Origin: a virus
Reading direction: 5' to 3' (one strand)
DNA: 53,359 nt
Virus record (IMG/VR): IMGVR_UViG_3300045988_063706
Coordinates: 1 to 53,359 of that record
Made by a program: the position numbers and the translations under genes. Positions 2,468 to 42,492 of this stretch are shown in pieces (within the stretch, counting starts at the first letter, position 1; every line of letters begins with the position of its first letter). The notes under the pieces were generated by a model. That model saw only the letters and a list, made by a program, of their open reading frames with translations. It was not told where the DNA came from and made no database searches.

Positions 2468-2783
2468 AGGGAAGCGAGAGGCTCCTAAAAAGCCGAGACG
2501 CCGGGTTTCCGTGACGAGGGTGGTATTCCTATCCACTCAAATCTCGGCTCTTGTATGGGTCTCTATCTCCTATGGCATAGCCATTTATTCGACCGTTGCC
2601 TTACAACAGCCATTTCCAGTCACTGAATTATCCTCGCAAGCAATAACATCAATTCTCGGTGTGGGCTTCCTAAAGGTACTGGAAAACATTTTCGAGCATA
2701 ACGATGGACCCGTTTTTGGGCATTCTAAGAAAGGAGAACAGGACTATGGAGGAGAACAAAACTACGATGACCCCGGAGTCTGA
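2448..2783 (+). CDS. Putative membrane protein (holin/antiholin candidate)
   Basis: Fills the gap between the endolysin and the next gene. Basic N-terminus, then hydrophobic stretches (VVFLSTQISALVWVSISYGIAIYSTV; ITSILGVGFLKVL). The start is uncertain (ATG 2448 or GTG 2511) and the RBS is weak. Confidence 0.4.
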   Translation: MLGRSTKGKREAPKKPRRRVSVTRVVFLSTQISALVWVSISYGIAIYSTVALQQPFPVTELSSQAITSILGVGFLKVLENIFEHNDGPVFGHSKKGEQDYGGEQNYDDPGV

Positions 2784-3033
2784 GGGTTTTGCGGAATTGG
2801 AGGGTGTCGTTGAGAAGAGGGCTATGCCTAAAGCCATTCTCAACAGGCTCGCCGCTCTCATGTCTGTCAAGTCCATTGTGACTCTGGTTCTTACCGGGGT
2901 ATTCGCATTCATGGCTTGCACAAACAGCATTTCGCAAGACTTCATGACTATCTATGCGGTCATCATTGCGTTCTACTTTGGCACTCAGAGTCAGAAAATC
3001 CAGGAAGTCATCACTGACAAAGAGGAGCAGTAA
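2746..3033 (+). CDS. Holin, two transmembrane segments
   Basis: RBS aaaggagaacaggactATG. 95 aa with two hydrophobic helices (IVTLVLTGVFAFMA; FMTIYAVIIAFYFG) and a charged C-terminus. Adjacent to the endolysin. Confidence 0.7.
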   Translation: MEENKTTMTPESEGFAELEGVVEKRAMPKAILNRLAALMSVKSIVTLVLTGVFAFMACTNSISQDFMTIYAVIIAFYFGTQSQKIQEVITDKEEQ

Positions 3034-3035
3034 CT

Positions 3036-3368
3036 ATGGACGCCGGGACCGTGACTTTTGTTGCCGGTTTGATATCCTGTGTCATCGGTGTTTCAACATT
3101 CATTTCAGGCAGAATGACAAAGGCTGAGCGAAACGGCTCCATGGAGACCAAAATCAATCAAGCCTTGGAGGGTATAACTGCAATCAACAGGAAGTTAGAG
3201 ACTTCCTCGCATGACCAACACGCTGTCGAATTGATGGTGCGTTCGCATGAAGAGCAGTTGAAAACCCTGTTCCGCTATGATCAGGACATACGAGCCTCTA
3301 TCGAAGAGGGCAACAAAACTCGTGAGGTACTCATTGAGTTACTGCAAGTTATAAAGTCTCAACGATAA
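3036..3368 (+). CDS. Membrane-anchored coiled-coil protein (lysis-cassette associated)
   Basis: N-terminal TM segment (VTFVAGLISCVIGVSTFI) followed by a helical charged region. Tightly packed after the holin. Confidence 0.6.
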   Translation: MDAGTVTFVAGLISCVIGVSTFISGRMTKAERNGSMETKINQALEGITAINRKLETSSHDQHAVELMVRSHEEQLKTLFRYDQDIRASIEEGNKTREVLIELLQVIKSQR

Positions 3369-3380
3369 CGAGGTGAAACG

Positions 3381-3713
3381 ATGAATCCAGAACAGAACCC
3401 CTTGGAAAACCTCGGAGAAATTCGTGACGAAAAGGATGCACTTGACCAGAGTATCGCTCTAAACCGGATTGTCATGACTATGCTCCAGCACCAAAAAGAG
3501 TCAAATAAACGAATGTTTATTGTGCTCATCATCAGCCTCATCATCAATGCGTGTATCGTTGCAGGGTTTCTCTATTACGAAAGCCTCTGGGAGTACGAAA
3601 CAACTACCACGACCGTCACGCAAGAAGTCGAGGGCGAGGGGTCTGACATCAACAATGTGCAGGGCAATCAATACATGGATAACGCCACGCACAACGAGGG
3701 AGGGCCTGACTGA
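3381..3713 (+). CDS. Single-pass membrane protein, unknown function
   Basis: RBS aacgaggtgaaacgATG. Central TM segment (MFIVLIISLIINACIVAGFLYY). Confidence 0.6.
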   Translation: MNPEQNPLENLGEIRDEKDALDQSIALNRIVMTMLQHQKESNKRMFIVLIISLIINACIVAGFLYYESLWEYETTTTTVTQEVEGEGSDINNVQGNQYMDNATHNEGGPD

Positions 3714-3888: not shown

Positions 3889-4119
3889 GTGACGAGTCAC
3901 ATTCAAACTCGAGCGAAGTTGAAAGAAATATGCCTTGTTACTGCGTTTGAGGATTTGCTTGACTTGTGTACGTTGAGTGACATCGACAAAGAAATTCTCC
4001 GGTTGCATTACCTAAAGGAGAAAGACTTTCGGTTCATTGGAGACGAACTCGGTTTCAGTGAATCAGCAATAAAGCAAAGGCATAGAAAAGCCCTAAAGAA
4101 ACTCGGAAATATTATCTAA
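3889..4119 (+). CDS. Sigma-70 region-4-like HTH protein (small phage transcription regulator)
   Basis: LSDIDKEILRLHYLKEKDFRFIGDELGFSESAIKQRHRKALKKL is a typical sigma-70 region 4 / ECF-type HTH. At 76 aa it has no region 2. Confidence 0.7.
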   Translation: MTSHIQTRAKLKEICLVTAFEDLLDLCTLSDIDKEILRLHYLKEKDFRFIGDELGFSESAIKQRHRKALKKLGNII

Positions 4120-4178: not shown

Positions 4179-4218
4179 AGGCCCCGTCTTATGTACTTGA
4201 GGCGGGGCCTTTTGCTTT
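4179..4218 (+). terminator. Second rho-independent terminator
   Basis: Stem aggccccg/cggggcct with an extendable base, about 8-nt loop, then tttgcttt. Confidence 0.7.
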
Positions 4219-4245
4219 ATACTTGAGTATAAAGGAGGCGATATA

Positions 4246-4410
4246 GTGCTCTATCCTGAGTCCGTTGTGTGTAATGAACTCCGCTGGGAGTACGGGTTGC
4301 CAAAATGGAAAGCCCTTGCGCTCATACAGAAGTACAAATCCCGGGATGAGTATGCGGTACTGTGTCGCCTCATTGAGATACGAAATTCCATACTTAGAGA
4401 GGAGCGATAG
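4246..4410 (+). CDS. Small hypothetical protein (54 aa), first gene of the accessory operon
   Basis: Not in the track. Strong RBS taaaggaggcgatataGTG. It ends 2 nt before the next start. Confidence 0.5.
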   Translation: MLYPESVVCNELRWEYGLPKWKALALIQKYKSRDEYAVLCRLIEIRNSILREER

Positions 4411-4412
4411 CC

Positions 4413-4895
4413 GTGTATCAATATCCGGGTCAAATGGGGGTTGCCCCCGGTATGCAGGTTCCGCAACCGGGTCAAATGTACGGGGTCCCCGGACAGCCCA
4501 TGCAACAGTCTCCAAATTTCGTCCCTCAGGTCCCGTCAGGCGTCCCGCAAGGGGTCAGTCAGGGTAACTATGCCCCCGCCCTACAAAACCCCATGAGGGT
4601 CCGCCCTGTGGCCTCCTACGACGAAGCGAAAGCAGTCCCGACCGATTTTATGGGGAATTTGCTCGTGCTTACTGACCTCTCCCATGGGTGCATATACACA
4701 AAGGTTCTGGACCCTGCGACTGGTAGTTCCATATTCCGTGTCTATAAGGAAGTCGTTGAACCTGCGCCTCAGCCTGAGCCGGTTGCTCCACCTGCGCCCA
4801 TGTATGACCCTAAAGCAGAGATTGAGCGGCTCCGTTCAGAGTTGGAGGGTATAAAGCACGAACTCGGTCTTGATAGCAAGGAGGAACAGAAATGA
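4413..4895 (+). CDS. Hypothetical protein with a Pro/Gln/Gly/Met-rich N-terminal low-complexity region
   Basis: YQYPGQMGVAPGMQVPQPGQMYGVPGQPMQQSPNFVPQVPSGVPQGV, then a folded-looking segment, a Pro-rich linker and a C-terminal coiled coil. GTG start, coupled to its neighbours. Confidence 0.65.
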   Translation: MYQYPGQMGVAPGMQVPQPGQMYGVPGQPMQQSPNFVPQVPSGVPQGVSQGNYAPALQNPMRVRPVASYDEAKAVPTDFMGNLLVLTDLSHGCIYTKVLDPATGSSIFRVYKEVVEPAPQPEPVAPPAPMYDPKAEIERLRSELEGIKHELGLDSKEEQK

Positions 4896-5125
4896 ACCAG
4901 ATGAACCCCATGCAGATGCTTCTTCAGATGACAAGAGCCGGTCAAAACCCGATGGGCCTGTTGCAGTCTCTATCGAGACAAAACCCGCAAGTCGCTCAGG
5001 CTATGCGGCTCATTCAGGGTAAAAGTCCTGAGCAACTCCGAAAGACTGCGGAGAACCTTGCTAAAGAGCGAGGGTACAACTTGGAGCAGATTGCTCAGCA
5101 GATGGGCATATCGCTCCCTAAATAA
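4892..5125 (+). CDS. Small Gln/Met-rich hypothetical protein
   Basis: ATGA overlap with the upstream stop. MNQMNPMQMLLQMTRAGQNPMGLLQSL... Confidence 0.6.
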   Translation: MNQMNPMQMLLQMTRAGQNPMGLLQSLSRQNPQVAQAMRLIQGKSPEQLRKTAENLAKERGYNLEQIAQQMGISLPK

Positions 5126-5178
5126 GATATTCGGCGGCGTACGAGCCGAGTATAAATACAATGAAAAGGAGAATATCT

Positions 5179-6036
5179 ATGGACGACTTTGGAATGGGCT
5201 ATGCTCTCGGTCAGGACTCCAACGGCGGCGGGAACTGTAACAATGGTTTCGGCGGTATGTGGGGAGAGGGTATCTGGGCTGTCATCATCCTCGGTATGAT
5301 TTTCGGTTGGGGCCGAGGCGGATGGGGAGGCTTTGGCGGCGGTGAGGGTATCAACTCTCCGGCCGGTCAGGGTGCTCTTACTCGTGGCGACCTGTGCGCT
5401 GAGTTTAACTTCAACAATCTGGACAACGCTGTCCGGGGTGTTCAGCAGGGTCTTTGCGACGGGTTCTATGCTCAGAACACGGCCCTCATGAACGGCTTCC
5501 ACGGTGTGGACAATGCGGTTTGCAGTCTGGGCTATCAAACTCAGCAGGGCTTCTCCACTCTGGCCGCTCAGATGGCTCAGTGTTGCTGTGACACTCAGAG
5601 AGCGATTGACGGCGTCAATTTCAGCACTTTGCAGGGCTTCAACGGCCTCCAGAATCAGATTGCTTCCTGTTGCTGTGATACTCAGCGACAGATTGAGCGG
5701 GGTTTCTGTGACGTCGGCTATAACATGGCAACCAACACGAACAACATCATCCAGTCTACTCATAACGATACTGACCGGGTCATTGCTCGTCTGGACGCTA
5801 TGGAGAACGCTCGTCAGGCCGAGAAGATTGCCGCTTTGCAGGCTGAGAACCAGACGCTCAAGTTCCAGGCTTCTCAGAATGCTCAGAACGCATTCATTAC
5901 CGCAAATCAGGAGGCTCAGACTGCGGAACTTATTCGCAGAATTGCTCCTACTCCTGTCCCCTCTTACGCTGTTCCGGCCCCTTATCCCTATTGTGGCGGC
6001 TGGAATAACGGATGCGGTTGCGGCTCTTGTTGCTAA
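5179..6036 (+). CDS. Gly-rich / Cys-rich membrane-associated protein with a repeated CCCDTQR motif
   Basis: RBS aaaggagaatatctATG (5179). Gly-rich N-terminus, a TM-like IWAVIILGMIFGW, CCCDTQR twice 29 codons apart (nt 5581 and 5668), a coiled coil, and a C-terminus of CGGWNNGCGCGSCC. Confidence 0.65.
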   Translation: MDDFGMGYALGQDSNGGGNCNNGFGGMWGEGIWAVIILGMIFGWGRGGWGGFGGGEGINSPAGQGALTRGDLCAEFNFNNLDNAVRGVQQGLCDGFYAQNTALMNGFHGVDNAVCSLGYQTQQGFSTLAAQMAQCCCDTQRAIDGVNFSTLQGFNGLQNQIASCCCDTQRQIERGFCDVGYNMATNTNNIIQSTHNDTDRVIARLDAMENARQAEKIAALQAENQTLKFQASQNAQNAFITANQEAQTAELIRRIAPTPVPSYAVPAPYPYCGGWNNGCGCGSCC

Positions 6037-6097
6037 CAATGACACATTCTGCGGAGGGTGGGCATTCCGCCCTCCGCATTGATTAGGAGGAATCTAT

Positions 6098-6502
6098 ATG
6101 GCTTGCAAAACGGCTTGTAAACTGTGCAACAAACTCATCATTTCGCAGTCTGTGACTTTTACTGGAGGGAATCTGATTATCAATCTTCCCGCCGGTAGTT
6201 ATAACGATGGTTGTAAATACTGCATTGTCGTCGCTCAGAGCATTCCATCAACTGCGACCATCAATGCACCGGTATTTATCACCATCGGAACCGGAACTCA
6301 GCAATACCCTCTGAACAAGTGCGATTGCACTCAGGCCACGGCTTGTTCCATTCGTACGAGAACCCGGTATGCGACTCGGGTAGAGACCACTCCTACGAGC
6401 GGCGTCTTCAAACTGCTGGGGAAAATCTGCTGTGCGCCTAACAACAATCTCAGAGGGATTAACGGGACGGCCCCGGTAACTCCGGCCTCGACTTCTGTTT
6501 AA
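6098..6502 (+). CDS. Small Cys-rich protein, unknown function
   Basis: RBS taggaggaatctatATG. Several Cys clusters in 134 aa (CKTACKLC, CKYC, CDC, CC) and a beta-rich composition. Confidence 0.65.
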   Translation: MACKTACKLCNKLIISQSVTFTGGNLIINLPAGSYNDGCKYCIVVAQSIPSTATINAPVFITIGTGTQQYPLNKCDCTQATACSIRTRTRYATRVETTPTSGVFKLLGKICCAPNNNLRGINGTAPVTPASTSV

Positions 6503-6514
6503 GGGGGTTATCAC

Positions 6515-7324
6515 ATGAACCCGAAAATGAAACGTATGCTCGTCAATGAGCGTCGCCGTCGCAAAGACGGAACCTTTATGGGGTATGGTGAACCCTACTC
6601 AGAGCGGAGCGGTAGCAGGGGTGTGAATCCTGATGGAACCACTTATCCAGTCTATCCGAGCATGGTTGTGGAGGCCCGATTTCGTGACCGGGATGGGAGA
6701 GAACATTATGACAATGGTCGGTTCGCTCCTGTTCGAGGAGCCTACGATAGAGGAAGCCCTGCAACTCTTGGGGGATATCCAGTCTATCCTCTCGTTCCTC
6801 CAATCTACGAACATCACGAAGAGATGGAGCCTTGGGGAGATAGGGAATGGGATGATGCTCCTGAGCATAAACCCCATAAACTGAACCGGATAGGGTTTGC
6901 CTCTCCTGATGAAATGGACGATAGCAGGTACGGCTCCAGAGTGGATATGCCCCGAATGAATGAAATGGCATATCGCAAGGGAGAAAAGGCTCACGGCTAT
7001 GCGAGCGGCGTGGAGGATATGCCCATGACAAAGGAACTCGCTATGAAGTGGGTCAAAGAAATGCGTAACTCTGATGGAACCTCCGGCCCTCATTGGACCA
7101 TGGAACAGGCGAAACAGATTATGCAACAGCAGAAAATCGACTGTGACCCGCTTGAATTCTTTGTGGCCTTGAATATGATGTATTCTGATTACTACAAGGC
7201 GGCAAAGGCTCGTAACTGTTCAACCGTTGAACTCTATGCGGCTATGGCAGAAGCATTCCTTGATGACAAGGACGCTCAGCCTGAGAAACTCTCTAAGTAT
7301 TACGAGTATATCGTAAAGCATTGA
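6515..7324 (+). CDS. Hypothetical protein, basic N-terminus, Pro/Tyr/Asp/Arg-rich middle, helical C-terminal domain
   Basis: RBS aagggggttatcacATG. I recognise no motif. Last gene before the terminator. Confidence 0.65.
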   Translation: MNPKMKRMLVNERRRRKDGTFMGYGEPYSERSGSRGVNPDGTTYPVYPSMVVEARFRDRDGREHYDNGRFAPVRGAYDRGSPATLGGYPVYPLVPPIYEHHEEMEPWGDREWDDAPEHKPHKLNRIGFASPDEMDDSRYGSRVDMPRMNEMAYRKGEKAHGYASGVEDMPMTKELAMKWVKEMRNSDGTSGPHWTMEQAKQIMQQQKIDCDPLEFFVALNMMYSDYYKAAKARNCSTVELYAAMAEAFLDDKDAQPEKLSKYYEYIVKH

Positions 7325-7334
7325 TTTCTTAGGG

Positions 7335-7369
7335 TTTAGAGGCCTCAGAAATGGGGCCTCTAAATTTTT
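7335..7369 (+). terminator. Rho-independent terminator closing the accessory operon
   Basis: Stem tttagaggcc/ggcctctaaa, 10-nt loop, then ttttt. Confidence 0.8.
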
Positions 7370-7390
7370 GCAAAATTTTGAAAATTTCTC

Positions 7391-7419
7391 TTGCACTCTG
7401 TTCCACTCTGTGTTAGAAT
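7391..7419 (+). promoter_or_regulatory. Sigma-A-type promoter, member of the conserved phage promoter family
   Basis: TTGCAC, 17 nt, TAGAAT, with TGTGT upstream of the -10. Confidence 0.65.
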
Positions 7420-7453
7420 ACCCATAGAAACAAAGAAACGGAGGTTTCACACT

Positions 7454-8353
7454 ATGTTAGAATGGATTGCAAAGGGGAATGACTTCTCTGAGTATGAGAA
7501 CTCTACTCACATTCGCCTGGACCGTATCGATAAGAATGGGACTCACTATTACACGGACACTCAATGCCCTAAATGCGGAGGCACTGGAAACATTCCCTAT
7601 TTCGGTCATGTTGAGGGTGGTGTGTGCTTCCTGTGCGGCGGCTCTGGTGTGCATGAAAAGAAGTTCAGAGTCTTGACTGAGGAGTACTCCAAAAAGTTGG
7701 AGGAAAAGCGGTTCAAGGACGCTTGCAAGCAAGCCCTCAAAGACAACGAGGTTTTCCTCAAGAAAGAGGGTTTCACCCCTGATGGAAAGACCTATGTTGT
7801 GCTCGGAAATACATGGCCTATCAAGGCTCAACTCAAGAATGCCGGTGCTTTCTTCTGCCATCAGTTCGGGTGGCACTTCAATCACCCCGTTGATGAGTGG
7901 CCTACCTTTACTCTTGACTTGAACCAGCCTATCGCATTCTCTGATGACGGCCCTATCTACCCTCTGGACAAGACCGTTCACGGGGCTTATCGGTATCATT
8001 TCGAGTTGGAGCATATCGTTCAGGGTTATATCAAGGACATCCAGCAGAAGTTTGAGAATGCTCAGCCGACCGAGACCGAGTGGTATGGTAGCCTCGGCGA
8101 GCGGGTCACTCTTACTGAATGCGCTTGCACTCTTCTTACTCAGTGGGAAACCGTGTATGGAACCACTCGCCTCTATAAGTTTGTAAACCCCGAGGGGTTT
8201 ATCTTCACATGGAAGACCGGGGCCTACATTGAGTCCGAGTATGTAAACACTGGAAAGACCCTCACCCTGAAAGGAACCATCAAGGAGCATTCCAAATTCA
8301 AGGGCGAAAAGCAGACCGAATTGACCCGTTGCAAAATTTCTTACGAAAATTGA
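7454..8353 (+). CDS. Zinc-finger protein (DnaJ-type CxxCxGxG x2) with an OB-fold-like C-terminus
   Basis: RBS aaacggaggtttcacactATG. CPKCGGTGNIPYFGHVEGGVCFLCGGSG. The C-terminus GERVTLTE...LYKFVNPEGFIFTWKT...LTLKGTIKEHSKFKGEKQTELTRCKI looks OB-like. Confidence 0.7.
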   Translation: MLEWIAKGNDFSEYENSTHIRLDRIDKNGTHYYTDTQCPKCGGTGNIPYFGHVEGGVCFLCGGSGVHEKKFRVLTEEYSKKLEEKRFKDACKQALKDNEVFLKKEGFTPDGKTYVVLGNTWPIKAQLKNAGAFFCHQFGWHFNHPVDEWPTFTLDLNQPIAFSDDGPIYPLDKTVHGAYRYHFELEHIVQGYIKDIQQKFENAQPTETEWYGSLGERVTLTECACTLLTQWETVYGTTRLYKFVNPEGFIFTWKTGAYIESEYVNTGKTLTLKGTIKEHSKFKGEKQTELTRCKISYEN

Positions 8354-11615: not shown

Positions 11616-12416
11616 TTATCTTACAAGGTTAGGAACCTGCTGAGGGATAGGACAGGCCCCGCCGTCACAGTGAGCAGAATGCTTTTCCCTCCACTCATCC
11701 AGACTGCGCTCATACAGGTGCAGGCTCCCGGCGAAATGGGTATAGGTTCCGATATCAACCCCGAGCCGAAATGCAAGCAAAATCTGGAAACAAGTGAATG
11801 AGAAAACATCATACGGGAACCCGGTCCACAGGTCATTGGAGCGCATATAGGTCGTCGCATGGAGTTTTCCGTCCCGGATTAAATACTGGAGCGCAACGGT
11901 GCAAGGGACGTCTTTTGTGGGGAATGTGTTGTAGTCCTCGGCATCCTTGATATGGATAACTGCCTGACGGCTGAGCGGGTTCTTGGTCAGGGCCTCAACC
12001 ACATACTCGAATTGGTCAAACCCGAACCGCTCAAAGATGCGCTGACCGTATGCAGAATTGACAGTCACGCCATCGTCAGACATACGCTCCCAAACCTTGG
12101 AGAATACGCTGATATCCTTGAGCCGGTTAGAGCCGGACAGATACCACAGCAGTTCCCCCACGGCGTACCGCATGGGCATTCTCCGGTCGTCGCTCGTAAC
12201 GATATTTCGGGTCGGGTCATTGATTACCGTGATAGCGTTCAGGCACTCAGCAACGACAGCCCCGTCACGAGAGGGGTCATTCTTACCGGCCTCAGCCTGT
12301 TTGTGGAACATATCGAACCACTCCTGCCACGCCTCATTGACCGTCCTGGTCTCAACCAGAATACCAGTCGGGGTCAGGGTCCCGCCATTCATGGGGATAT
12401 TGCATACGTCACTCAT
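11616..12416 (-). CDS. Thymidylate-synthase-fold pyrimidine C5 transferase. It has Asp at the base-discriminating position, so it is a candidate dCMP hydroxymethylase or methylase.
   Basis: Strong RBS GAAAAGGAGGAAAACGGATATG at 12416. VPCTVALQY (catalytic Cys), YMRSNDLWTGFPYD, SLHLY. The Asp lies 31 residues after the Cys, where E. coli ThyA has Asn177 and T4 gp42 has Asp179. Confidence 0.75.
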   Translation of the reverse strand: MSDVCNIPMNGGTLTPTGILVETRTVNEAWQEWFDMFHKQAEAGKNDPSRDGAVVAECLNAITVINDPTRNIVTSDDRRMPMRYAVGELLWYLSGSNRLKDISVFSKVWERMSDDGVTVNSAYGQRIFERFGFDQFEYVVEALTKNPLSRQAVIHIKDAEDYNTFPTKDVPCTVALQYLIRDGKLHATTYMRSNDLWTGFPYDVFSFTCFQILLAFRLGVDIGTYTHFAGSLHLYERSLDEWREKHSAHCDGGACPIPQQVPNLVR

Positions 12417-12879
12417 ATCCGTTTTCCTCCTTTTCAAGTTTGGTTCCTGCAAAGTTGGCGTCATACCGGATGACCGGCAAAATACTCTCCGCCATTAGTC
12501 CCTCGAAGCGACTGAGCAGTTCCGGGACGGGGATGAGGGTAACTTCACCCCTTGCCGCTAAACGCTCCATGATGAGTCCCTCAGGAGCCGTGACGAGGAT
12601 TACCTTGCCCTCGGCGTCAAGTATGCGAGCCTCAAGCCGGTGCAACTCCTCTTTTGTGATATGCCGCTCCTCTTTCTTTTGGTACACGAACTGACCGTAG
12701 CAGAACCGGTCAGCAATAATGTTCCGGGTCATAGCCGCCGAAATGATACTGTCGAAAAAGTCATAATCGTTCGGGGTTTTGGCGGTGCAATGAACGATAT
12801 CAGCGTTCAGCAGTTTGGAAAGGAACTTTGCAAGTGTAGTCTTGCCAGTTCCGTCACAGCCCTCGAGAACAACCAGCAT
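12409..12879 (-). CDS. Thymidylate-kinase-like dNMP kinase
   Basis: VLEGCDGTGKTT P-loop and the DRFCYGQFVYQ motif (Tmk DR..S..AYQ). 156 aa. Confidence 0.7.
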   Translation of the reverse strand: MLVVLEGCDGTGKTTLAKFLSKLLNADIVHCTAKTPNDYDFFDSIISAAMTRNIIADRFCYGQFVYQKKEERHITKEELHRLEARILDAEGKVILVTAPEGLIMERLAARGEVTLIPVPELLSRFEGLMAESILPVIRYDANFAGTKLEKEENGYE

Positions 12880-13305
12880 TCAATTCACCCCCGTTGAACC
12901 CCATCCGCCTCTGGACTTATCAGGGAGGGTTTCTACCTCTGTGAATTCGACCTCAGGCTGGAGAGGGTAAATCATAAATTGACAGATGCGCTCATTCTTT
13001 TCGATGGTGACGTCCCGTGTAGCATAGGCAAAGAAACCCCATACGTCGTCATTCCCACAGAAAGAATTCTCAAAAACCCCGATGGAGTTTGCTTGCAAAA
13101 GACCTGTCCGCTTGAATGTGCTGGAGCGGGGCGCAAGTATGGCTCCATACCCCTCAGGGAGTTTCATGGACACGCCGAGCGAAATAAGGGCCGATTCTCC
13201 TGCTTTCAGGGTAACACGCTCAGCGGCCCGGAGGTCAATCCAGTCACCGACAGGGGTTTTCTTCGGCAACTCAACATCGGTGTGCCGCTTGATTAAAATG
13301 TTCAT
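12880..13305 (-). CDS. dut: dUTP diphosphatase (trimeric dUTPase)
   Basis: GYGAILAPRSS, GVFENSFCGNDDVWGF and a C-terminal RGGWGSTG. Confidence 0.9.
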   Translation of the reverse strand: MNILIKRHTDVELPKKTPVGDWIDLRAAERVTLKAGESALISLGVSMKLPEGYGAILAPRSSTFKRTGLLQANSIGVFENSFCGNDDVWGFFAYATRDVTIEKNERICQFMIYPLQPEVEFTEVETLPDKSRGGWGSTGVN

Positions 13306-14348
13306 GACTTCCTCCGTTTCTTCTTGCCCTTTTTGGGTAGGTTCAGGTTATCGGCACAGGTGATGCCGGTTTCCTTTTCCCAGTCTCTCGCCCGGAGTAC
13401 AGTGAGCGGCTCGTGCTTCTCCAGAACGATATCGTAGTCCTCCTCAGTGGGTTCCTCCATTTCCTGCTTGCCTAAATGGTCAGGCAACAGGCCCTCCCTC
13501 ATGGGGATATGGTCACACACGTTACAGGGGAAGAAAGTCCGATGGTCATGGAACAGAATGCGCCGAGCGGCCTCATACCGAGGATGCCGCCACATATCGT
13601 CAAAACACTTTACCTCCGGGTCCATGCAGTTGACAACAGGGTATTGACCCCGGAAGTCCTGACAGCACATAGCAACCCATCCATCCCAGCGGAAAGACAT
13701 CTCCCGGAAAATGCGGGAGCATACCCGGTCAGAGTAGTCAGTCCGGGGAGGCATACCAGCCCCACAGTGATTCGTCAGTTTGCGGGAAACACAAATCTCC
13801 TCTTCCTCAATAGCGGGGATGATGAGGAGCCGATGCTTCTTGTACTGCTTCGGAGCATACAGGGGGACACCCTTTTGCATACGGACGAATTCAACATGGG
13901 TTCCAGTCTCTTCCTCGTACTTGTCCAACAGTTCTTGGATTTCATCATCGTCAAACTTGCTGTCCTTGTACTCGTCCAGAGTTACGTCGTTCAACCCGGC
14001 GTCAAACATTTTGCAAATAGCGTTGAGGTCTTTGCGAACCCCATAGCCATTCGTCAAAATCTGGACCCAGTGAGTGGGGAGAACCTTGCGAATGAGTTTA
14101 ATGCACGAATAGAAGTTCGGATGCAGGGCGTTCTCCCCATGCCCCGCAATCAGGATGCGAGGGTTATACCCACTCTCCGCAATCAGTTCGCACTCACGGC
14201 GGAGGACATCCTTGCTGATGAAATGCAGTTTGCGCTCAAACCCGTTAGAACCGCAAAAGAAACAAGAGCGGTTGCAACCCTGAACGAGTTCGATTTGAAC
14301 CGTGTTCGGCTTGTAAAAAGCCGAGTTTCTGTACTTCTTTTTCTTCAT
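13302..14348 (-). CDS. Radical SAM enzyme with a SPASM/twitch-like C-terminal Cys cluster
   Basis: QGCNRSCFFCG (CX3CX2C, nt 14251..14280). C-terminus VCSRIFREMSFRWDGWVAMCCQDF...FFPCNVCDH. Lys-rich tail. Confidence 0.85.
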   Translation of the reverse strand: MKKKKYRNSAFYKPNTVQIELVQGCNRSCFFCGSNGFERKLHFISKDVLRRECELIAESGYNPRILIAGHGENALHPNFYSCIKLIRKVLPTHWVQILTNGYGVRKDLNAICKMFDAGLNDVTLDEYKDSKFDDDEIQELLDKYEEETGTHVEFVRMQKGVPLYAPKQYKKHRLLIIPAIEEEEICVSRKLTNHCGAGMPPRTDYSDRVCSRIFREMSFRWDGWVAMCCQDFRGQYPVVNCMDPEVKCFDDMWRHPRYEAARRILFHDHRTFFPCNVCDHIPMREGLLPDHLGKQEMEEPTEEDYDIVLEKHEPLTVLRARDWEKETGITCADNLNLPKKGKKKRRKS

Positions 14349-14351
14349 CTC

Positions 14352-15311
14352 TTACCACCTTACGATGACCGGCTTGGACTCATGGAGTTTATGGTACTGT
14401 TGCCAGTTGATGTCCCCGAACTTATACTGACCATCAGGGAACTTGAATGTTTCCCTTAGATAATGCCGTATCTCCATCTCCATGAGGCCATCATATTCCA
14501 GTTTGTGGAGATGCCGGTTCTTGTCCGGGTTATGCGGGTCACGAACGACCGAGGCAACTTGGTCGTCAATGTAGTCGTAGCACAGGCACGGAATATTAAA
14601 GCAGTCATAACCATTCTGGAGAACCTCTGCGGCGAACCCGATGTCATCTCCATGGAGGTTGAATGCGTCGGGCATTCTTATCCCCGCTTTCTTGATACCT
14701 TTCATATTCAGTATCTTGGTCTGACGAGGAGTAGGGCCTTTGTCTATCTGATACTTGATATCAGCGAGGTCCGCATGGTTTGAAAACCGCTGTTTCCGTA
14801 TGTTACCGAGCAGGACGCTTGGATGCTCTCTAAAGACCTCTCGTGCTATGCGCCCCGTCAACTGCAAAACTTTTTGAGGAATTAAGGGGTCATCTTCCCA
14901 GTCCTTGACCCCGGTGTGCATACTACATTTTTCTCCTGAACCGTTTCGCCCGGTATAGAGGAACTGGAGATACTTGATGTCATCATCCATATCCATAATG
15001 CAGGGCAAATGGTTTTCAATGGCATAGTCCATTATGAACTGACGTGTACTGCCTACTCCGGAGACTGCGCCCTTGGGAATGGGAACCATGTTCATCCCAC
15101 GTTTGAGGAGTTTGCGGTTTGCCTTTTTATAGGCCGCATACTGTTCCTCCCGCACAACGATGAAGACACGCTCAAGGGCCTCGTCAGTGAACAGAGGCAG
15201 GATTTTCTCGCCAGTAACAAACTCAGGCCGATTATAGGAGGGTATGAATACGAATGGCAGGTCTTTCTCAGTGGTCTCGTTGAGAATGCGCTCCATCTTA
15301 CTGCGCTTCAT
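14352..15311 (-). CDS. GT-A-fold glycosyltransferase-like protein (DXD type), candidate DNA or nucleotide glycosyltransferase
   Basis: RBS AAAAGGAGGCTGACCCATG. FVFIPSYNRP first strand, then CIMDMDDDI about 85 residues later. The family assignment is tentative. Confidence 0.5.
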   Translation of the reverse strand: MKRSKMERILNETTEKDLPFVFIPSYNRPEFVTGEKILPLFTDEALERVFIVVREEQYAAYKKANRKLLKRGMNMVPIPKGAVSGVGSTRQFIMDYAIENHLPCIMDMDDDIKYLQFLYTGRNGSGEKCSMHTGVKDWEDDPLIPQKVLQLTGRIAREVFREHPSVLLGNIRKQRFSNHADLADIKYQIDKGPTPRQTKILNMKGIKKAGIRMPDAFNLHGDDIGFAAEVLQNGYDCFNIPCLCYDYIDDQVASVVRDPHNPDKNRHLHKLEYDGLMEMEIRHYLRETFKFPDGQYKFGDINWQQYHKLHESKPVIVRW

Positions 15312-24568: not shown

Positions 24569-25036
24569 TCAGTTCCTCACGTCCGGGGCGTCCCAGTCCT
24601 TTTCCCAAATGACAGTGACACCAGAGTCCTCGAAAATACGTTGGGTCTCCTCACTGATTTTCTGTTGCCGCCCATAGATGACCCTCGTGATACCGGCCGA
24701 GACAATGGCACGAGCGCAAGCCTCGCACGGATAGCGAGTGACAAAAATGGTTGTCCCGGTGAGGTCTTCTCTTGCGCCACAGATAGCGTCAACCTCGGAA
24801 TGGATTGCCCTGCAATCAGCCGGGGAACGGTGAGTCTTGTCATTGTCCCCATACTTCTCAATCCGGAGACAGCCCCGATACTTGCAGAGGTCAGGGATTG
24901 CCCGGTTCGCACCAAAACTCACCGCTCGGCCATGCTTCACAATAACGGCCCCGACCGTGACCTTAGTGCAACCAGACATGATTCCGGCATAAATGTTCGC
25001 CATGTCTAACCAGTTACTCCACCCCATTACTCGCAT
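24569..25036 (-). CDS. dCMP deaminase (cytidine/deoxycytidylate deaminase fold)
   Basis: RBS GGAGGAGCATCACAATG. HSEVDAI (H-x-E) and YPCEACARAI (PCxxC) zinc motifs. Confidence 0.9.
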   Translation of the reverse strand: MRVMGWSNWLDMANIYAGIMSGCTKVTVGAVIVKHGRAVSFGANRAIPDLCKYRGCLRIEKYGDNDKTHRSPADCRAIHSEVDAICGAREDLTGTTIFVTRYPCEACARAIVSAGITRVIYGRQQKISEETQRIFEDSGVTVIWEKDWDAPDVRN

Positions 25037-25418
25037 TGTGATGCTCCTCCTCTCTCATAATCCCATCGGCTTGAATGTTGTTCTGGATGCGCTCAACGAT
25101 AACGGCGATGAATGTGGTATTCGTGACCTTGCCGCTGTTCATGCTCACCACATTCCCGAAATACTTCTTGCGAGTGTCCTCCGCCATGTTATTGAATGCG
25201 CTCTCAATAGCGTGGCGAATGGCTCTCTCAACTCTGGACGTGGTAGAGTCCACTTCCTTTGCAATATCAGGGTACAGTTTCCCGGTCATGTTCCGCAGGT
25301 ACTCCCGGTCATTGTAGACCATCTCAACTCCGACCTTGAGATAGTCCCACCCCAAAAGACCGGGGTTTATGCCAACATCCAGCAGGGTATCAGAAATCAT
25401 CCATTGTACGGAAGTCAT
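25014..25418 (-). CDS. Stand-alone Spo0A C-terminal (DNA-binding) domain protein, no receiver domain
   Basis: RBS AAAAGGAGGAAAACTGATG at 25418. [43 protein letters not shown]...[15 protein letters not shown] is near-collinear with B. subtilis Spo0A [43 protein letters not shown]...KPTNSEFIAMVADKL. Confidence 0.9.
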   Translation of the reverse strand: [134 protein letters not shown]

Positions 25419-26518
25419 CAGTTTTCCTCCTTTTGGTAGTTCCACGGCTCAGTCGTGGGATGATAGCAGTTGCGGGGACGACCCGTACCATTCACAGCCT
25501 TGATATATTTGCTCAACTCACAGAAGCAATTCTCAAGGGCCATGACATTCAGACAGCGGTCTCCCTCGGGGCGATACTTGAACAGTTTCTCAGGGTTCCA
25601 TCCAAACAGACGAGCATAGTCCCCGGCCTGGAGCGCAATAAAGTACTCGTCAATGTTGTCCCGGAGGAAGAACAGGGCCTCCTCATGGGTCATACCGCCG
25701 TAGTCACTGAACACAAGGTCAAGACCCCGCTTGCACCCCGGCCCCGCAACAGTAAACTCATTCTCGGAGAACGGAAAGTCCTCAATATAGGTCAGGTCAA
25801 CGAATACCTGATAGGCAAGGAATGAGGCAAACCCACGAATCTCCCGGATGATATTGTATGCGGCCTCCTGGTCTTTGGCTTTCATCAGGCGGCGGAACAC
25901 CTTGCGCTCTTTTAACCATGGACCGATATGGAATACCCGCAGGGGGATGTCCGGCTCGTAGTCCTTGAATTTCTTCCCCATTTCCTCAGACGGAGCACGA
26001 CTAAAGCCCTCCCCGTCCGGGAATTTCCATGCGTACTTTGTGCCGCCCTGATTATATGCGCTGGACCACCACTTGCGGTCAGGGCTCTCAATGAGGAGCC
26101 GCTTATAGGTCGGGCGAACTGCTTCCTTTAGGGCCAGCCCATCATAGATTTCATCAGCCGACCACGGCCCCCCGAAATCCGTGAATGTGTTCGGGTTATT
26201 CCAGGACCGGAGCAGGAATGTATTCAGCACCTTTTCCTCCAGAGTGAGTTCAGGGTTCGTGGAAACCAGTTCAATCAGCGCACGGCTGACACGGTCATCC
26301 TCCCGGAATACGTTGGTAAACTTGTACTCCTTAAGAACCGGGTTCTTAGTCCACGGCTGAGGTTTACCGAGGATATCCTTGCGAACGTGAATACGATACC
26401 GCTCAACAATGAAGTCCCGGAGATGCGCCGTGTTCTCCTCATTGAGGTATGGTTCCGCCTTTCTGATGCGCTTTTCGTTGACGCCACAGTAGGCAACGTC
26501 TCTCGGCTTTGTCTGCAT
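25418..26518 (-). CDS. Candidate DNA base hypermodification protein (alpha-glutamyl/putrescinyl-thymine pyrophosphorylase-like, aGPT-Pplase-like)
   Basis: 366 aa. PQPWTKNPVLKEYKFTNVFREDDRVS matches my memory of the PWT..pIL..YRF.NV.RE.DrvT signature of that family, and FLAYQVFVDL lies downstream. From memory only, not searched. Confidence 0.45.
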   Translation of the reverse strand: MQTKPRDVAYCGVNEKRIRKAEPYLNEENTAHLRDFIVERYRIHVRKDILGKPQPWTKNPVLKEYKFTNVFREDDRVSRALIELVSTNPELTLEEKVLNTFLLRSWNNPNTFTDFGGPWSADEIYDGLALKEAVRPTYKRLLIESPDRKWWSSAYNQGGTKYAWKFPDGEGFSRAPSEEMGKKFKDYEPDIPLRVFHIGPWLKERKVFRRLMKAKDQEAAYNIIREIRGFASFLAYQVFVDLTYIEDFPFSENEFTVAGPGCKRGLDLVFSDYGGMTHEEALFFLRDNIDEYFIALQAGDYARLFGWNPEKLFKYRPEGDRCLNVMALENCFCELSKYIKAVNGTGRPRNCYHPTTEPWNYQKEEN

Positions 26519-30488: not shown

Positions 30489-31166
30489 TTACATATAATC
30501 AGAGCCATAATGGGAATGAGTAGGCTCCCAAAAGTTTTCGAACTCCTCGTGCTCGGTACGAAACCAGTTCCGCTCCCCGTCACCGTGGAAGTACACATAC
30601 TCAACCGGCAACGTGCGAACAGCAGTCGGGTCTCCAAGATGGAGTCGGTTCCATTCATTCCACACACTGAGAGCCATATCGTAGAACTCAGGCTCAACCG
30701 GGTTATCAGGGTCATATCCGTGGAACTGAGACTGAGTGCATACCTCAGCAATCGTGTCAGGGAAGCGAGGGTCATCAATACGGTTGAACACGCACCAGAT
30801 GACAGCCTCCTGCTCAACCTTTAATTCCACGCCACGAGCCTCCCCCCATACCATTTGAGCAAGACGGCGCATATCAGCAGGGTCAGCGGCGGGGACTAAT
30901 GTGTTATAGTCCACAGTGACGGACTCTGAGCCGACCTCAGCCTCCTCCCCGCTATTGGGGAGGGACTGGGTCATGGTTGCCTTTGCCGGGACGGTGAGGT
31001 CGTCCTGAGCGTCCCTCGCAAGGACTGTCATGGTGATACCTGCATACATAACCAAACACACGGCCGACAGCAGTACACCCAACAGGATGCCAAACGGCTC
31101 AGGGCGATAGCGGCGTCTCCGCTTGCGCTCAGGGTGGATGCGAACGGTGATTATCTTCTGGGTCAT
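30489..31166 (-). CDS. Membrane-anchored SleB/CwlJ-like cell-wall hydrolase (Hydrolase_2 family)
   Basis: Basic N-terminus plus a TM segment (FGILLGVLLSAVCLVMYAGI). LAQMVWGEARGVELKVEQEAVIWCVFNRIDDPRFPDTIAEVCTQSQF matches the SleB catalytic-domain signature. Confidence 0.75.
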   Translation of the reverse strand: MTQKIITVRIHPERKRRRRYRPEPFGILLGVLLSAVCLVMYAGITMTVLARDAQDDLTVPAKATMTQSLPNSGEEAEVGSESVTVDYNTLVPAADPADMRRLAQMVWGEARGVELKVEQEAVIWCVFNRIDDPRFPDTIAEVCTQSQFHGYDPDNPVEPEFYDMALSVWNEWNRLHLGDPTAVRTLPVEYVYFHGDGERNWFRTEHEEFENFWEPTHSHYGSDYM

Positions 31167-40406: not shown

Positions 40407-40453
40407 GGGCTTTTTGAAAATTTCTCAGAAAAATTTTGAAAGGAGGTTTTCGT

Positions 40454-42250
40454 ATGGCAGAATGGACACTTGCTGACGCTACTCAAATCAGGGCAAACCT
40501 AACGAAAGAGCAGGAAGACGAGATATCCATGCTCTATCGCAAGGTCTATTTGCAGGTGCGAAAGCAAATGCTCGCTATTCCTAAAGACGGAACGACCTCG
40601 CAACAGCTTCAAAGGCAATATCTGGACAAACTGCATAAACAACTCGACGAGGCGTACAAGTCTCTCGGCGTGGGTCTTGAAAAGCAGATTCAAAAGGAGG
40701 CAAAGAAAGCCGCTCAAGGCGTGGTAGAGTCCTCCAAAAAGATGACGAATAAACTCGGGTTCAAGATTGAGGGTGCATACTCATTCGTTCCAAAAGATGT
40801 CATCAACGCTTTAGTGACTGGGCAGGTATATGGAGGAAACTGGAGCCTGAGTGGTGCTATCTGGGCCGACATCGACAAGAAGCAGTCCGACATCAGTAAA
40901 GTTATCGCTGAGGGCCTTGCGGCGAATAAAAGTGCATACGATATCGCAAAAGACTTGGAAACCTACGTTGACCCTAAAGCGAAAAAGGAATGGGACTGGA
41001 GCAAGGTTTATCCGGGCACAAGCAAAAAGGTCGACTACAATGCTCAGCGGCTGGCTCGTACTATGATTTCCCATGCCTACCAACAGAGTCTCGAACGGGT
41101 ATGCAAGAATAATCCATTTGTTGAGGGGTTTATCTGGCAATCCGCACACTCAAGTCGGGTTTGTCCTATCTGCGCCGAGCGGGATGGGCAGTTCTACAAA
41201 AAGGGTGAACTCCCGCTTGACCATCCGAATGGAATGTGTACCTTTATCGCAAGTATTCAAGGCTCTATGAATGATGTCGCTGACCGGCTTGCTGATTGGG
41301 CAAATGGCAAGAGTGACCCCGAACTGGACAAATGGTACGAGGATATGACCGGGGGCAAGGCTACTCCGGTATTCAACGAGGAACAAAAGAAATGGCTGGA
41401 GCCTCTTGGCTACTCGGTGAATAATATGCCTACAAACTTCAAAGAGTTTGCTACTCAGTTATCCTTTGACCAACAGAGCGAGCTCCTTTCCCTTGCCGGT
41501 GGCTCATGGAGCAGTCCTCATCCATATCAGCTCATGGAGAAATACTACAAAGAGCACTTGCTCAGTGTGAGGGCCGGGGTTTCTGCTATACAGAAGCCGA
41601 AAAAGCCTCCTATCGGTATGAGCAAGGAACTCATGGAGGAACTGTTCAGAAAGCAGGATTACTCTGTCATTGGAAAACTTTCCGAAGCGACGAATAAGTG
41701 GTGGAAGTCCTTAACTCAAGAGGAGCGAGATGCGGTTGAGGCCTATACTGGAAGTTCCTACATTGATATGAATAACTTCCTGCGTGGCATTGATAAAAAT
41801 ATCGCAGACTATATGAAGAAGCGAATTCAGGACTGCCGCTCCGCTCTTAACAAGGTAGAAAGCCCCTTTGACATCGTTGTGGGCCGTGGCTCCAGCACAA
41901 GCAGTCTCCGGGGAATGCTTGGAAAGCCTAAAGGCATGAAAACCGCTATTGATGATGGCGAACTTGCAGATTGGGTGAATAAGAACAAGGACTCTTTGAT
42001 TGGCTCTATTGCAAGCGACAAGGGTTTCCTCTCAACGACCCCTGTTGAGGGCGGCGGGTTCTCGGGCGATATCACTTATCGAATTTTTGTGCCTAAAGGC
42101 AGTCATGGAGCCTATGTTGACGAGTACAGTAGACATCAGGGTGAGCGAGAGCTCCTGTTGCAAGCCGATGGAAAGTTTAGAGTGACTGACCTTGTCGCCT
42201 CCTATGGGAATAGGGTTACGGTCTATATGGAGTACATTCCGCAAAAATAA
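40454..42250 (+). CDS. Minor head protein (SPP1 gp7 / Mu F-like) fused to a C-terminal ADP-ribosyltransferase (R-S-E type) domain
   Basis: gp7 core ARTMISHAYQQS...WQSAHSSRVCPICAERDGQFY...LDHPNGMCTF. ART region from about nt 41690: AYTGSSYIDMNNFLRG, VVGRGS (Arg), GFLSTT (STS-like), QGERELLL (ExE). Confidence 0.8.
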   Translation: MAEWTLADATQIRANLTKEQEDEISMLYRKVYLQVRKQMLAIPKDGTTSQQLQRQYLDKLHKQLDEAYKSLGVGLEKQIQKEAKKAAQGVVESSKKMTNKLGFKIEGAYSFVPKDVINALVTGQVYGGNWSLSGAIWADIDKKQSDISKVIAEGLAANKSAYDIAKDLETYVDPKAKKEWDWSKVYPGTSKKVDYNAQRLARTMISHAYQQSLERVCKNNPFVEGFIWQSAHSSRVCPICAERDGQFYKKGELPLDHPNGMCTFIASIQGSMNDVADRLADWANGKSDPELDKWYEDMTGGKATPVFNEEQKKWLEPLGYSVNNMPTNFKEFATQLSFDQQSELLSLAGGSWSSPHPYQLMEKYYKEHLLSVRAGVSAIQKPKKPPIGMSKELMEELFRKQDYSVIGKLSEATNKWWKSLTQEERDAVEAYTGSSYIDMNNFLRGIDKNIADYMKKRIQDCRSALNKVESPFDIVVGRGSSTSSLRGMLGKPKGMKTAIDDGELADWVNKNKDSLIGSIASDKGFLSTTPVEGGGFSGDITYRIFVPKGSHGAYVDEYSRHQGERELLLQADGKFRVTDLVASYGNRVTVYMEYIPQK

Positions 42251-42306: not shown

Positions 42307-42492
42307 ATGTCAAGCAAATTCGAATGGACAGAAGAGACGGCTCCGAAGCCGGTACGCATGGAAGACCTCGTCTGTAAAGACTGCTTCCATAGGAGCGGAC
42401 GAACTGACATCTGTGCTGAGTATCAGGAACTAAAGCCTTTCTCAGTGCTGGATGGTGGTTCTTGTCCACACTACAAAAAGGAGAAGAAATGA
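42307..42492 (+). CDS. Small zinc-ribbon protein (61 aa)
   Basis: RBS gaaaggagtgagactatATG. CKDCFH...ICAEY...SCPHY. Confidence 0.55.
   Translation: MSSKFEWTEETAPKPVRMEDLVCKDCFHRSGRTDICAEYQELKPFSVLDGGSCPHYKKEKK

Follow-up and report, generated by a model that had tools for sequence, protein, structure and literature searches.

Gene content and boundaries of the cassette

The subject of this work is a gene cassette on the virus record IMGVR_UViG_3300045988_063706 (IMG/VR), a phage contig of 53,359 bp from a gut metagenome, which over its full length is referred to as the window. At positions 4246-7324 the window carries one terminator-insulated transcription unit, located at the distal end of the late arm which encodes the structural and lysis proteins. 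Five of its genes, designated A to E, represent a mobile, conserved five-protein set that thousands of gut Clostridia phages and prophages have in common, and a core of E, C and D is also present in some Crassvirales. The original prediction, made from the sequence alone, had described a seven-gene operon at this position. The + strand holds six open reading frames (ORFs) there, all of which had been listed with the correct coordinates, and the conserved cassette comprises five of them. The genes of the unit and the intrinsic terminators delimiting it are the following (lengths in amino acids, aa):

4246..4410, + strand: w0, 54 aa, helical, GTG start, the first gene of the unit and restricted to this lineage
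4413..4895, + strand: A, 160 aa
4892..5125, + strand: B (version B1), 77 aa
5179..6036, + strand: C, 285 aa, the hallmark protein, with an alternative upstream ATG at 5161
6098..6502, + strand: D (version D1), 134 aa
6515..7324, + strand: E (version E1), 269 aa
4118..4147, + strand: intrinsic terminator 1, 13-bp stem with eight GC pairs and a T-run, ending the transcript of the upstream gene for a sigma-70 region 4 protein (sigma-r4)
4179..4210, + strand: intrinsic terminator 2, 13-bp stem followed by TTTTGCTTT, -24.8 kcal/mol
7335..7369, + strand: closing intrinsic terminator, 17-bp stem followed by a T-run, -24.7 kcal/mol, z = -4.3

The same genes have been called publicly on near-identical contigs, where the start of C is set to 5179; homologs of C likewise begin at the position matching 5179 and not 5161. 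The first ORF, w0, is regarded as a real gene because it has a strong ribosome binding site (RBS), as read from the sequence, and differs from its close relatives by synonymous changes only: four relatives with about 97% nucleotide identity show two to six synonymous differences and no amino acid change. No w0 homolog was found by searches with a hidden Markov model (HMM) in the other, more distant loci described below. The tight coupling that had been claimed for all genes of the unit holds for w0 and A (2-nt gap), A and B (4-nt overlap) and D and E (12-nt gap), but not for B and C or C and D, which are 53 nt and 61 nt apart.

Two terminators upstream and one downstream had been expected to bracket the unit, and all three were recovered, the upstream ones by a pattern scan and the downstream one by folding. 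The latter hairpin (7335-7369) had been overlooked by the pattern scan, and none of 200 shuffled sequences was as stable. The unit ends at this terminator, since the next gene (7389-8353, + strand, likely start ATG 7454) possesses its own promoter, TTGCAC-17-TAGAAT, and is missing from L083, a relative with 97% identity. This makes it a separate, variable gene; its product contains a CxxC...CxxC zinc ribbon and matches phrog_30451. In agreement with the original prediction, the unit follows the genes for a CHAP endolysin and holin-like proteins, and no integrase or recombinase Pfam label was found on the whole 53-kb contig. Its description as a self-contained accessory unit at the usual position of morons was borne out as well by the terminator insulation, and 24 of the 35 loci with informative spacing have a terminator separating the sigma-r4 gene from A.

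Conservation and modular organization

A scan of 185,579 species genomes yielded 148 relatives of C, from which 80 loci were taken, and iterated HMM searches were carried out over all ORFs of 83 loci. This survey of related phages, which had been suggested as a check, established that the gene order A-B-C-D-E is conserved in about 80 phage and prophage loci from gut Clostridia. The hosts are almost all Clostridia, namely Oscillospiraceae, Acutalibacteraceae, Lachnospiraceae and Christensenellales, and include the cultured strain Anaerotruncus colihominis DSM 17241. Homologs were detected in the 83 loci as follows: C in 83, A in 72, B in 49, D in 43 and E in 27; a sigma-r4 homolog lies upstream of A in 44. 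The order sigma-r4 (where present), A, B, C, D slot and E slot is kept, and the slots are occupied by proteins of ~130-155 aa (D) and ~145-300 aa (E) even where the profiles miss them. Dulem virus 35 and Bajarodcaudo virus 5, which are otherwise different phages, carry the five genes in the same order; the C protein of either virus is 45% identical to that of the window, and for Bajarodcaudo virus 5 the identities of D, B and A amount to 37%, 31% and 30%.

Clustering of the slot occupants revealed two unrelated and exchangeable versions each of B, D and E, with A and C being constant. Relationships between D1 and D2 and between E1 and E2 were considered and rejected, as hhalign gave nothing in either case. 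The B slot is occupied in 64 loci, by B1 in 45 and by B2 in 16. The cassette consists of a constant part formed by A, B and C and an exchangeable part formed by D-E, with B being exchangeable as well. The versions were found in the following combinations:

B1-D1-E1 (window type): 21 loci
B2-D2-E2: 13 loci, plus 11 without a called B
B1-D2-E2: 8 loci
B1-D1-E2: 5 loci
B2-D1-E2: 3 loci

E1, the version with the DUF7841 domain, occurs only together with D1 and never with D2. The spacing of the genes within the family is given below:

A-B: median gap -8 nt, at most 15 nt in 95% of the loci
B-C: median gap 64 nt, at most 15 nt in 6% of the loci
C-D: median gap ~84 nt, at most 15 nt in 5% of the loci
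D-E: median gap 12 nt, at most 15 nt in 81% of the loci

From this family-wide spacing three translational units can be deduced, the pair A-B, C alone and the pair D-E.

An optional sixth gene, X (~125 aa), flanks the cassette in 27 of the 83 loci, either immediately before A or right behind E, and is absent from the window (examples are L015:94-471, L027:6713-7078 and L001:6382-6780). The invariant D-C...R...H...D pattern of its product suggests a papain-like Cys/His/Asp enzyme, a prediction derived from the sequence pattern; sequence profile searches of Pfam and PDB gave no relative of X.

In seven of the loci (L011, L030, L041, L062, L065, L076, and L078) and in the Crassvirales loci L091 and L092 TAG is read as a sense codon. 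The genes A, B and C of the seven recoded phages contain zero to five in-frame TAGs each, five of the 21 genes contain none, and read-through restores the full length. The use of TAG recoding as a marker for expression timing was dropped, given that in-frame TAG codons occur in genes of both strands.

Properties of the cassette proteins

The unusual amino acid compositions for which the unit had been singled out were upheld in a comparison with the remainder of the window proteome. Protein A is rich in Pro (14.4%) and Gln (8.8%) and comprises a P/Q/G/M-rich stretch of 62 residues at the N-terminus, a small central domain that is conserved, and an amphipathic helix at the C-terminus. B (16.9% Gln, 10.4% Met) is a Q/M-rich helical protein that is translationally coupled to A. 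A had no match in Pfam or in a profile search of PDB sequences, and the best match of B in the latter was a de novo designed helical protein, the same search being empty for D1, D2 and E1; weak matches of B to TMP_2, HRDC and Sigma70_r4 were dismissed as compositional. Taken together, the Pfam and PDB profile searches gave no informative sequence relative for A, B or E2. According to the hydropathy profiles, C is the only cassette protein with a hydrophobic segment. Inspection of the sequences and their hydropathy revealed no signal peptide in any cassette protein and no lipobox in A, B, D or E.

The hallmark protein C is a member of PHROG 16490, as indicated by a profile match with E = 1.7e-66 and 225.8 bits. 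The family comprises at least 7,983 clusters at 90% identity and, when 1.84 billion representatives were searched exhaustively with HMMER, 2,336 clusters at 50% identity, in which all homologs are stand-alone proteins of about 130-340 aa (typically ~250-300 aa) without fusions. C contains 14.7% Gly, 9.5% Asn and 5.6% Cys. Its N-terminal tail is net acidic and poor in Lys and Arg in 71 of 77 members. It is followed by a Gly-flanked hydrophobic helix, which in the window protein spans approximately residues 32-44; the 13-residue hydrophobic core starts at residue 32 in the family median. Two long helices, predicted for residues 80-149 and 157-255 in a low-confidence AlphaFold model, carry repeated CCCxTQR motifs (CCCDTQR in the window), and the protein terminates in a Pro-rich segment and a GCGC-type C-terminus, the window protein ending with CGGWNNGCGCGSCC. 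The AlphaFold model as a whole is helical with a predicted local distance difference test score (pLDDT) of 51 and was too poor for a fold search.

D1 is rich in Cys (7.5%) and Thr (14.2%), and the D family includes 5,647 clusters. The AlphaFold model of D1 (pLDDT 76, predicted TM-score 0.69) shows an eight-stranded beta-sandwich from residue 12 to 106 with a flexible N-terminal arm containing CxxxCxxC and, behind a CC pair, a disordered tail. Outside its own family, Foldseek searches of BFVD matched this model to distal domains of tail fibers, collagen-repeat proteins and receptor-binding proteins, and furthermore to one crAss-like protein, a fusion of a D-like domain with DUF7841. The viral proteins matching the D fold are labelled as Myo-, Sipho-, Podo- and crAss-like. 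The alternative occupant of the D slot in other loci, D2, gave a full-length match to Pfam BclA_C in seven of 32 members, the best one with E = 5e-7 and 30.1 bits, which is below the gathering score of 38; neither D1 of the window nor any of the 39 D1 members matched BclA_C (PF18573). The idea that D1 could be an Ena/DUF3992-like pilus subunit, which arose from the Cys-containing arm and the beta-sandwich, was abandoned, as there was neither a Pfam match nor a fold match in the PDB.

E matches Pfam DUF7841 (PF25223) with 100.7 bits (cut-off 25.2) and an E-value of 7.7e-29 over profile positions 4-114 of 114, and the same label is found on relatives of E. The N-terminal half of the protein is disordered and rich in R, P, G, D and Y, and the helical DUF7841 domain extends from aa 148 to 264 (nt 6956-7306). 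The statement of the original prediction that the proteins belong to no recognizable family therefore has to be revised for C and E, which are members of PHROG 16490 and DUF7841; it remains true that both families are of unknown function. Likewise, profile and structure searches of the kind that had been recommended (Pfam, PHROG and NCBIfam for the window proteins, Pfam for all members of the slots A, B, D1, D2, E2 and X, and Foldseek for D1) led to no family of known function for the cassette proteins of the window, and apart from these two families gave only the sub-threshold BclA_C signal of D2 and a weak likeness of D1 to the fold of fiber knobs.

Homologs in Crassvirales

In the RefSeq Crassvirales genomes cr4_1 and cr109_1 (Suoliviridae), homologs of cassette genes are located directly after the holin gene and are followed by virion structural genes. 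The DUF7841 protein encoded there is a homolog of E1 (E = 1e-34), with the R/G/Y-rich stretch at its C-terminus, and the full-length homolog of C (E = 3.5e-20) shows a Gly/Trp hydrophobic segment, the motif CCCTTQR and a C-terminal GCGC. A homolog of D1 was detected in cr4_1 (E = 3e-7). A 188-aa protein of the Crassvirales was compared with A by hhalign and rejected, as no relationship was found. Crassvirales are assigned to Bacteroidota hosts, and no member of the Suoliviridae has been cultured (PMC10136315). Peptides of the Crassvirales homologs were absent from the supplements of a metaproteomics study (PMC9523058).

Upstream candidate regulator gene and genomic setting

The cassette is preceded by two further features:

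3889..4119, + strand: sigma-r4 gene, 76 aa, consisting of sigma-70 region 4 alone (Pfam Sigma70_r4, 3.7e-11)
4213..4238, + strand: possible promoter or leader TGCTTTATACTTGAGTATAAAGGAGG, which includes the RBS of the first gene; a tentative assignment read from the sequence

The sigma-r4 protein, which is encoded across the terminators from the cassette, is a likely dedicated regulator and represents a candidate for its control. T-tract k-mers are enriched upstream of A with p of about 1e-16. Directly after the terminator upstream of A, the non-coding string TGCGAAAATTTAAGCATAAGGAGG recurs in L020, L038, L056, L067 and others, and strings similar to the possible leader of the window follow the terminator in ~10 other loci, an enrichment that is weak and may reflect shared lineage. 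The post-terminator string could be a promoter or leader that is recognized by the sigma-r4 protein.

On the + strand of the window, genes for terminase, portal and capsid come first, then those for the tail proteins, a CBM5/12 protein, the CHAP endolysin (1736-2467) and small membrane proteins (2704-3713), after which the sigma-r4 gene, the terminators and the cassette are reached in this order; the genes for replication and nucleotide modification are located on the opposite strand. Across the loci, 100 ORFs from the 4.5 kb upstream of the cassette were inspected in 58 loci. Endolysin catalytic domains were present in ~23 of them (Amidase_2 in nine, CHAP in five, M23 in three, GH25 and M15 in two each, and others), Phage_min_cap2 in five and Phage_cap_E in two. 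The cases with capsid genes belong to one related lineage, in which the cassette together with X, small membrane proteins and sigma-r4 is inserted between portal/minor capsid and scaffold/major capsid genes. Within prophages, the cassette follows the lysis genes and is the final unit ahead of the integrase gene or host DNA. It occurs in temperate phages as well as in phages without lysogeny genes. The cassette is always located in late-gene territory, and usually, not obligatorily, beside lysis genes.

The regions 3036-3368 and 3381-3713 (+ strand) of the window, L001:6641-7373 and L002:7381-7668 encode small proteins that have a single transmembrane helix plus a coiled coil. They accompany the sigma-r4 gene and the cassette even in the head module, and may belong to an extended module rather than being the phage holin.

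Several other genes of the window deserve mention. A cluster for nucleotide metabolism and DNA hypermodification (11616-15311 and 24569-26518, - strand), whose members according to their Pfam labels are thymidylate-synthase-like, dTMP-kinase-like, DCD/dUTPase, radical SAM, TAGT (weak), dCMP deaminase and HMUDK_hel proteins, suggests that a pyrimidine in the phage DNA is replaced or modified. Of two genes situated between those for portal and major capsid, one encodes a 604-aa protein that contains an ADP-ribosyltransferase exotoxin domain (40436-42250, + strand) and the other an ADP-ribosylglycohydrolase (42462-43316, + strand); the former may be an injected toxin and the latter its antidote. 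The tail region includes a gene for a 294-aa protein with an S-layer SbsC C-terminal domain (47436-48320, + strand). A protein consisting of Spo0A_C only is encoded at 25014-25445 (- strand) and a weakly matching Hydrolase_2 protein of the SleB type at 30489-31166 (- strand), by which the phage may manipulate sporulation or germination of its host. Both genes had been linked to the cassette in the original prediction. Their existence was confirmed, but both are located on the other strand, within the early arm, and are unlinked to the cassette. In one locus (L087:5485-5923) the cassette-bearing prophage abuts the host genes cotJA and cotJB; this adjacency is in all likelihood fortuitous and reflects no more than where the prophage ends.

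Proposed function and alternative explanations

As a low-confidence guess, which we regard as possible and no stronger, the cassette encodes a membrane-anchored, cross-linkable, fiber-like complex made late in infection. Assembly is placed in the cytoplasm of the infected cell, because only C has a hydrophobic segment and none of the proteins a signal peptide. C would insert its Gly-flanked hydrophobic helix into the cytoplasmic membrane with the acidic N-terminal tail outside, and its helical shaft of ~170 residues and the Cys-rich tail would project into the cytoplasm. The beta-sandwich of D would serve as a knob and, with its cognate partner E, form an exchangeable ligand-binding end, and the P/Q-rich A and the Q/M-rich B might constitute a second conserved sub-complex, acting as scaffold or chaperone. 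The abundant Cys, Tyr and Gln residues would permit cross-linking or metal binding. The assembly may then act at or after the lysis step, with the host envelope or else released particles and debris as its target.

In its favor are the conserved gene order and wide spread, the terminator insulation, the late-gene surroundings, the gene spacing and version pairing together with the D-like/DUF7841 fusion, and features of the proteins, namely the fiber-tip-like fold of D1, the BclA_C-like D2 and, in C, the hydrophobic helix, the long helices, the acidic N-terminal tail and the lack of fusions.

A number of observations weigh against this proposal. No cassette protein has a homolog of known function, and the contacts among the proteins are predictions only. 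The model of C is of low confidence and its hydrophobic segment is short (13-17 residues), which makes membrane insertion and topology deductions of ours. The type of the C-terminal tail of C does not co-vary significantly with the version of B, D or E, a comparison that is confounded by phylogeny. For D1, Foldseek gave nothing significant against the PDB, the best match being a phage baseplate/tail-fiber chain with E = 0.06, and the structural matches beyond its own family are weak (E = 1e-4 to 1e-2, TM-score 0.45-0.57). A scan for a canonical sigma-70 promoter before the cassette found none, and -10-like boxes are not enriched (19 versus 15.5 +/- 2.8 in shuffles). Finally, the endolysin gene of Dulem virus 35 lies 15 kb away from the cassette, so that the linkage with lysis is not obligatory.

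The main alternative, to our mind rather unlikely, is an accessory fiber or decoration of the released virion that would bind host or gut glycans, with C as a trimeric coiled-coil shaft, D as exchangeable distal knob, E as chaperone or adaptor, and A and B as attachment or assembly proteins. The resemblance of the D1 fold to the distal knobs of tail fibers, collagen-repeat proteins and receptor-binding proteins and that of D2 to the trimeric C-terminal knob of BclA point in this direction, and the coupled, co-varying genes D and E recall the swapping of tip plus chaperone known from tail fibers. The location is compatible as well: the cassette is found in late-gene territory throughout, it directly precedes virion structural genes in Crassvirales, and in one lineage it lies between the minor capsid and the scaffold/major capsid genes, where decoration genes are often located. 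However, terminator insulation and an own regulator gene are unusual for a structural gene, a segment of C is strongly hydrophobic, and small membrane proteins accompany the cassette. Searches of Pfam, PHROG and NCBIfam gave no known fiber or capsid-binding domain, and the spread over unrelated particle types, as judged from the labels of the fold matches and from the presence in both Crassvirales and Clostridia phages, is difficult to reconcile with a specific docking site.

Roles in defense, in a condensate or matrix, or at the spore are less likely than the virion fiber. A host-directed moron, expressed from its own promoter in lysogens and serving in defense, superinfection exclusion or another kind of lysogenic conversion, is improbable. 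The classic position between lysis genes and integrase or host DNA, a D/E end that is mosaic and exchangeable, as seen in arms-race systems, and the inclusion of a membrane protein agree with it, and flanking terminators and a variable position in the genome, which characterize a moron in the sense of Hendrix, were both found. It is made less likely by the presence of the cassette in phages without lysogeny genes, such as the window and the Crassvirales genomes, by the lack of any PADLOC-DB 2.0 match at E <= 0.1 for sigma-r4, w0 or A to E, and by the failure to find enzymatic or nucleic-acid-sensing domains; moreover, the in-frame TAGs in the seven recoded phages imply that complete expression there requires a phage suppressor context. 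We give similarly little credence to a condensate or cross-linked matrix, formed by the prion-like P/Q/Y/M region of A and the R/G/Y/D regions of E and nucleated at the membrane by C, in which the progeny would be embedded and protected. The low-complexity composition of A and E fits such a matrix, E2 and the Crassvirales homologs of E are also R/G/Y/S/D-rich despite a different domain order, and the Cys-rich proteins C and D could lock it upon oxidation; yet the case is purely compositional, and it is the folded domains (the D sandwich, DUF7841, and the center of A) that are conserved, whereas the low-complexity parts vary in length and position. Very improbable in our estimation is the spore-interfacing module of the original prediction, according to which the Cys/Gly/Tyr/Gln-rich proteins are deposited on, or interfere with, the spore coat or exosporium. 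The composition is analogous to that of coat proteins, D2 resembles BclA_C, signal peptides are lacking as in coat proteins of the mother cell, most hosts are Clostridia, the phage additionally encodes Spo0A_C and SleB-type proteins, and one prophage is located beside cotJA/cotJB. Against this, neither sequence nor structure comparisons (Pfam, NCBIfam, PDB profiles, and Foldseek of D1) matched the window proteins to spore-coat, exosporium or Ena families. In particular, C and D gave no Pfam or NCBIfam match to CotY/CotZ/ExsY (PF10612) or DUF3992, and the six translations contain no collagen-like GXX repeats and have no collagen Pfam match. Spo0A_C and the SleB-like gene are early-arm genes without linkage to the cassette, and the cotJ adjacency indicates the end of a prophage only. 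Bacteroidota, the hosts assigned to the Crassvirales, are non-sporulating, diderm bacteria, and the occurrence of the E-C-D core in these phages argues against a spore-specific role; the claim is not supported as an account of the cassette.

Returning to the membrane-anchored complex, we tentatively envisage a portable, self-regulated late kit of five proteins which can be acquired by any tailed gut phage, whether of Firmicutes or Bacteroidota, and which possibly builds a membrane-nucleated fiber or matrix, cross-linkable through Cys, Tyr and Gln and bearing an exchangeable, ligand-binding knob, for egress or for the protection or retention of progeny in the gut. If true, the phage life cycle would gain a step in addition to those of holin, endolysin and spanin; a device for egress or particle retention would be a new step in the textbook lysis pathway of the most abundant gut phages. 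If the cassette instead encodes a virion fiber whose tips can be swapped, it is of relevance to host range and mucosal adherence. Either way, a large fraction of gut viromes can be annotated better. C and D each form thousands of gut-metagenome clusters without a name, a Pfam function or literature and are now tied to one cassette, which crosses the divide between Firmicutes and Bacteroidota phages. Scattered "hypothetical proteins" thereby become a defined and testable system, for which cultured lysogens exist, among them Muriventricola aceti H5_61, Eubacterium sp. 14-2 and Anaerotruncus colihominis DSM 17241, whose prophage is located at about 1,669,815-1,686,573 of NZ_CP102255.

Comparison with known systems

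The database entries PHROG 16490 and DUF7841 contain C and E, but record no multi-gene cassette, versions, context or function. No database source names any of the cassette proteins, and the literature searched contained nothing on DUF7841, on the Crassvirales gene labelled "outer capsid protein/viral fiber" or on a cassette of this kind.

Two-component spanins such as Rz/Rz1 of phage lambda, and other lysis accessories acting after the holin, are likewise late proteins encoded beside holin and endolysin, and C is reminiscent of i-spanins in its N-terminal hydrophobic helix as a putative anchor, two predicted long helices, suggestive cysteines and a Pro-rich end. In contrast to the spanin situation, most hosts of the cassette are monoderm Clostridia without an outer membrane, a lipobox-containing lipoprotein partner (o-spanin) is missing from the cassette, and five proteins instead of two are encoded. 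The acidic N-terminal tail of C furthermore suggests the opposite topology with the bulk in the cytoplasm, and no sequence relationship was found. With tail-fiber tips and their chaperones the cassette has in common the knob-like sandwich of D, the coupled genes D and E, which co-vary and are exchanged as a unit, and a shaft-like C. It differs from them in being located outside the tail module and insulated by terminators, in the knob being a separate 134-aa protein unfused to the shaft, in the hydrophobic anchor of C and in the lack of a match to fiber or chaperone families in Pfam, PHROG and NCBIfam. The BclA/exosporium nap and the proteins ExsY, CotY and CdeC are resembled by the BclA_C-like D2, the richness in Cys, the missing signal peptides and the Q-, Y- and G-rich low-complexity segments; D1, however, shows no BclA_C or CotZ signal, collagen repeats are absent and the cassette also occurs in phages of non-sporulating Bacteroidota. 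Since the cassette did not qualify as a spanin, tail-fiber, exosporium/Ena or defense system in these comparisons, we tentatively rate it as lying outside the known kinds of systems.

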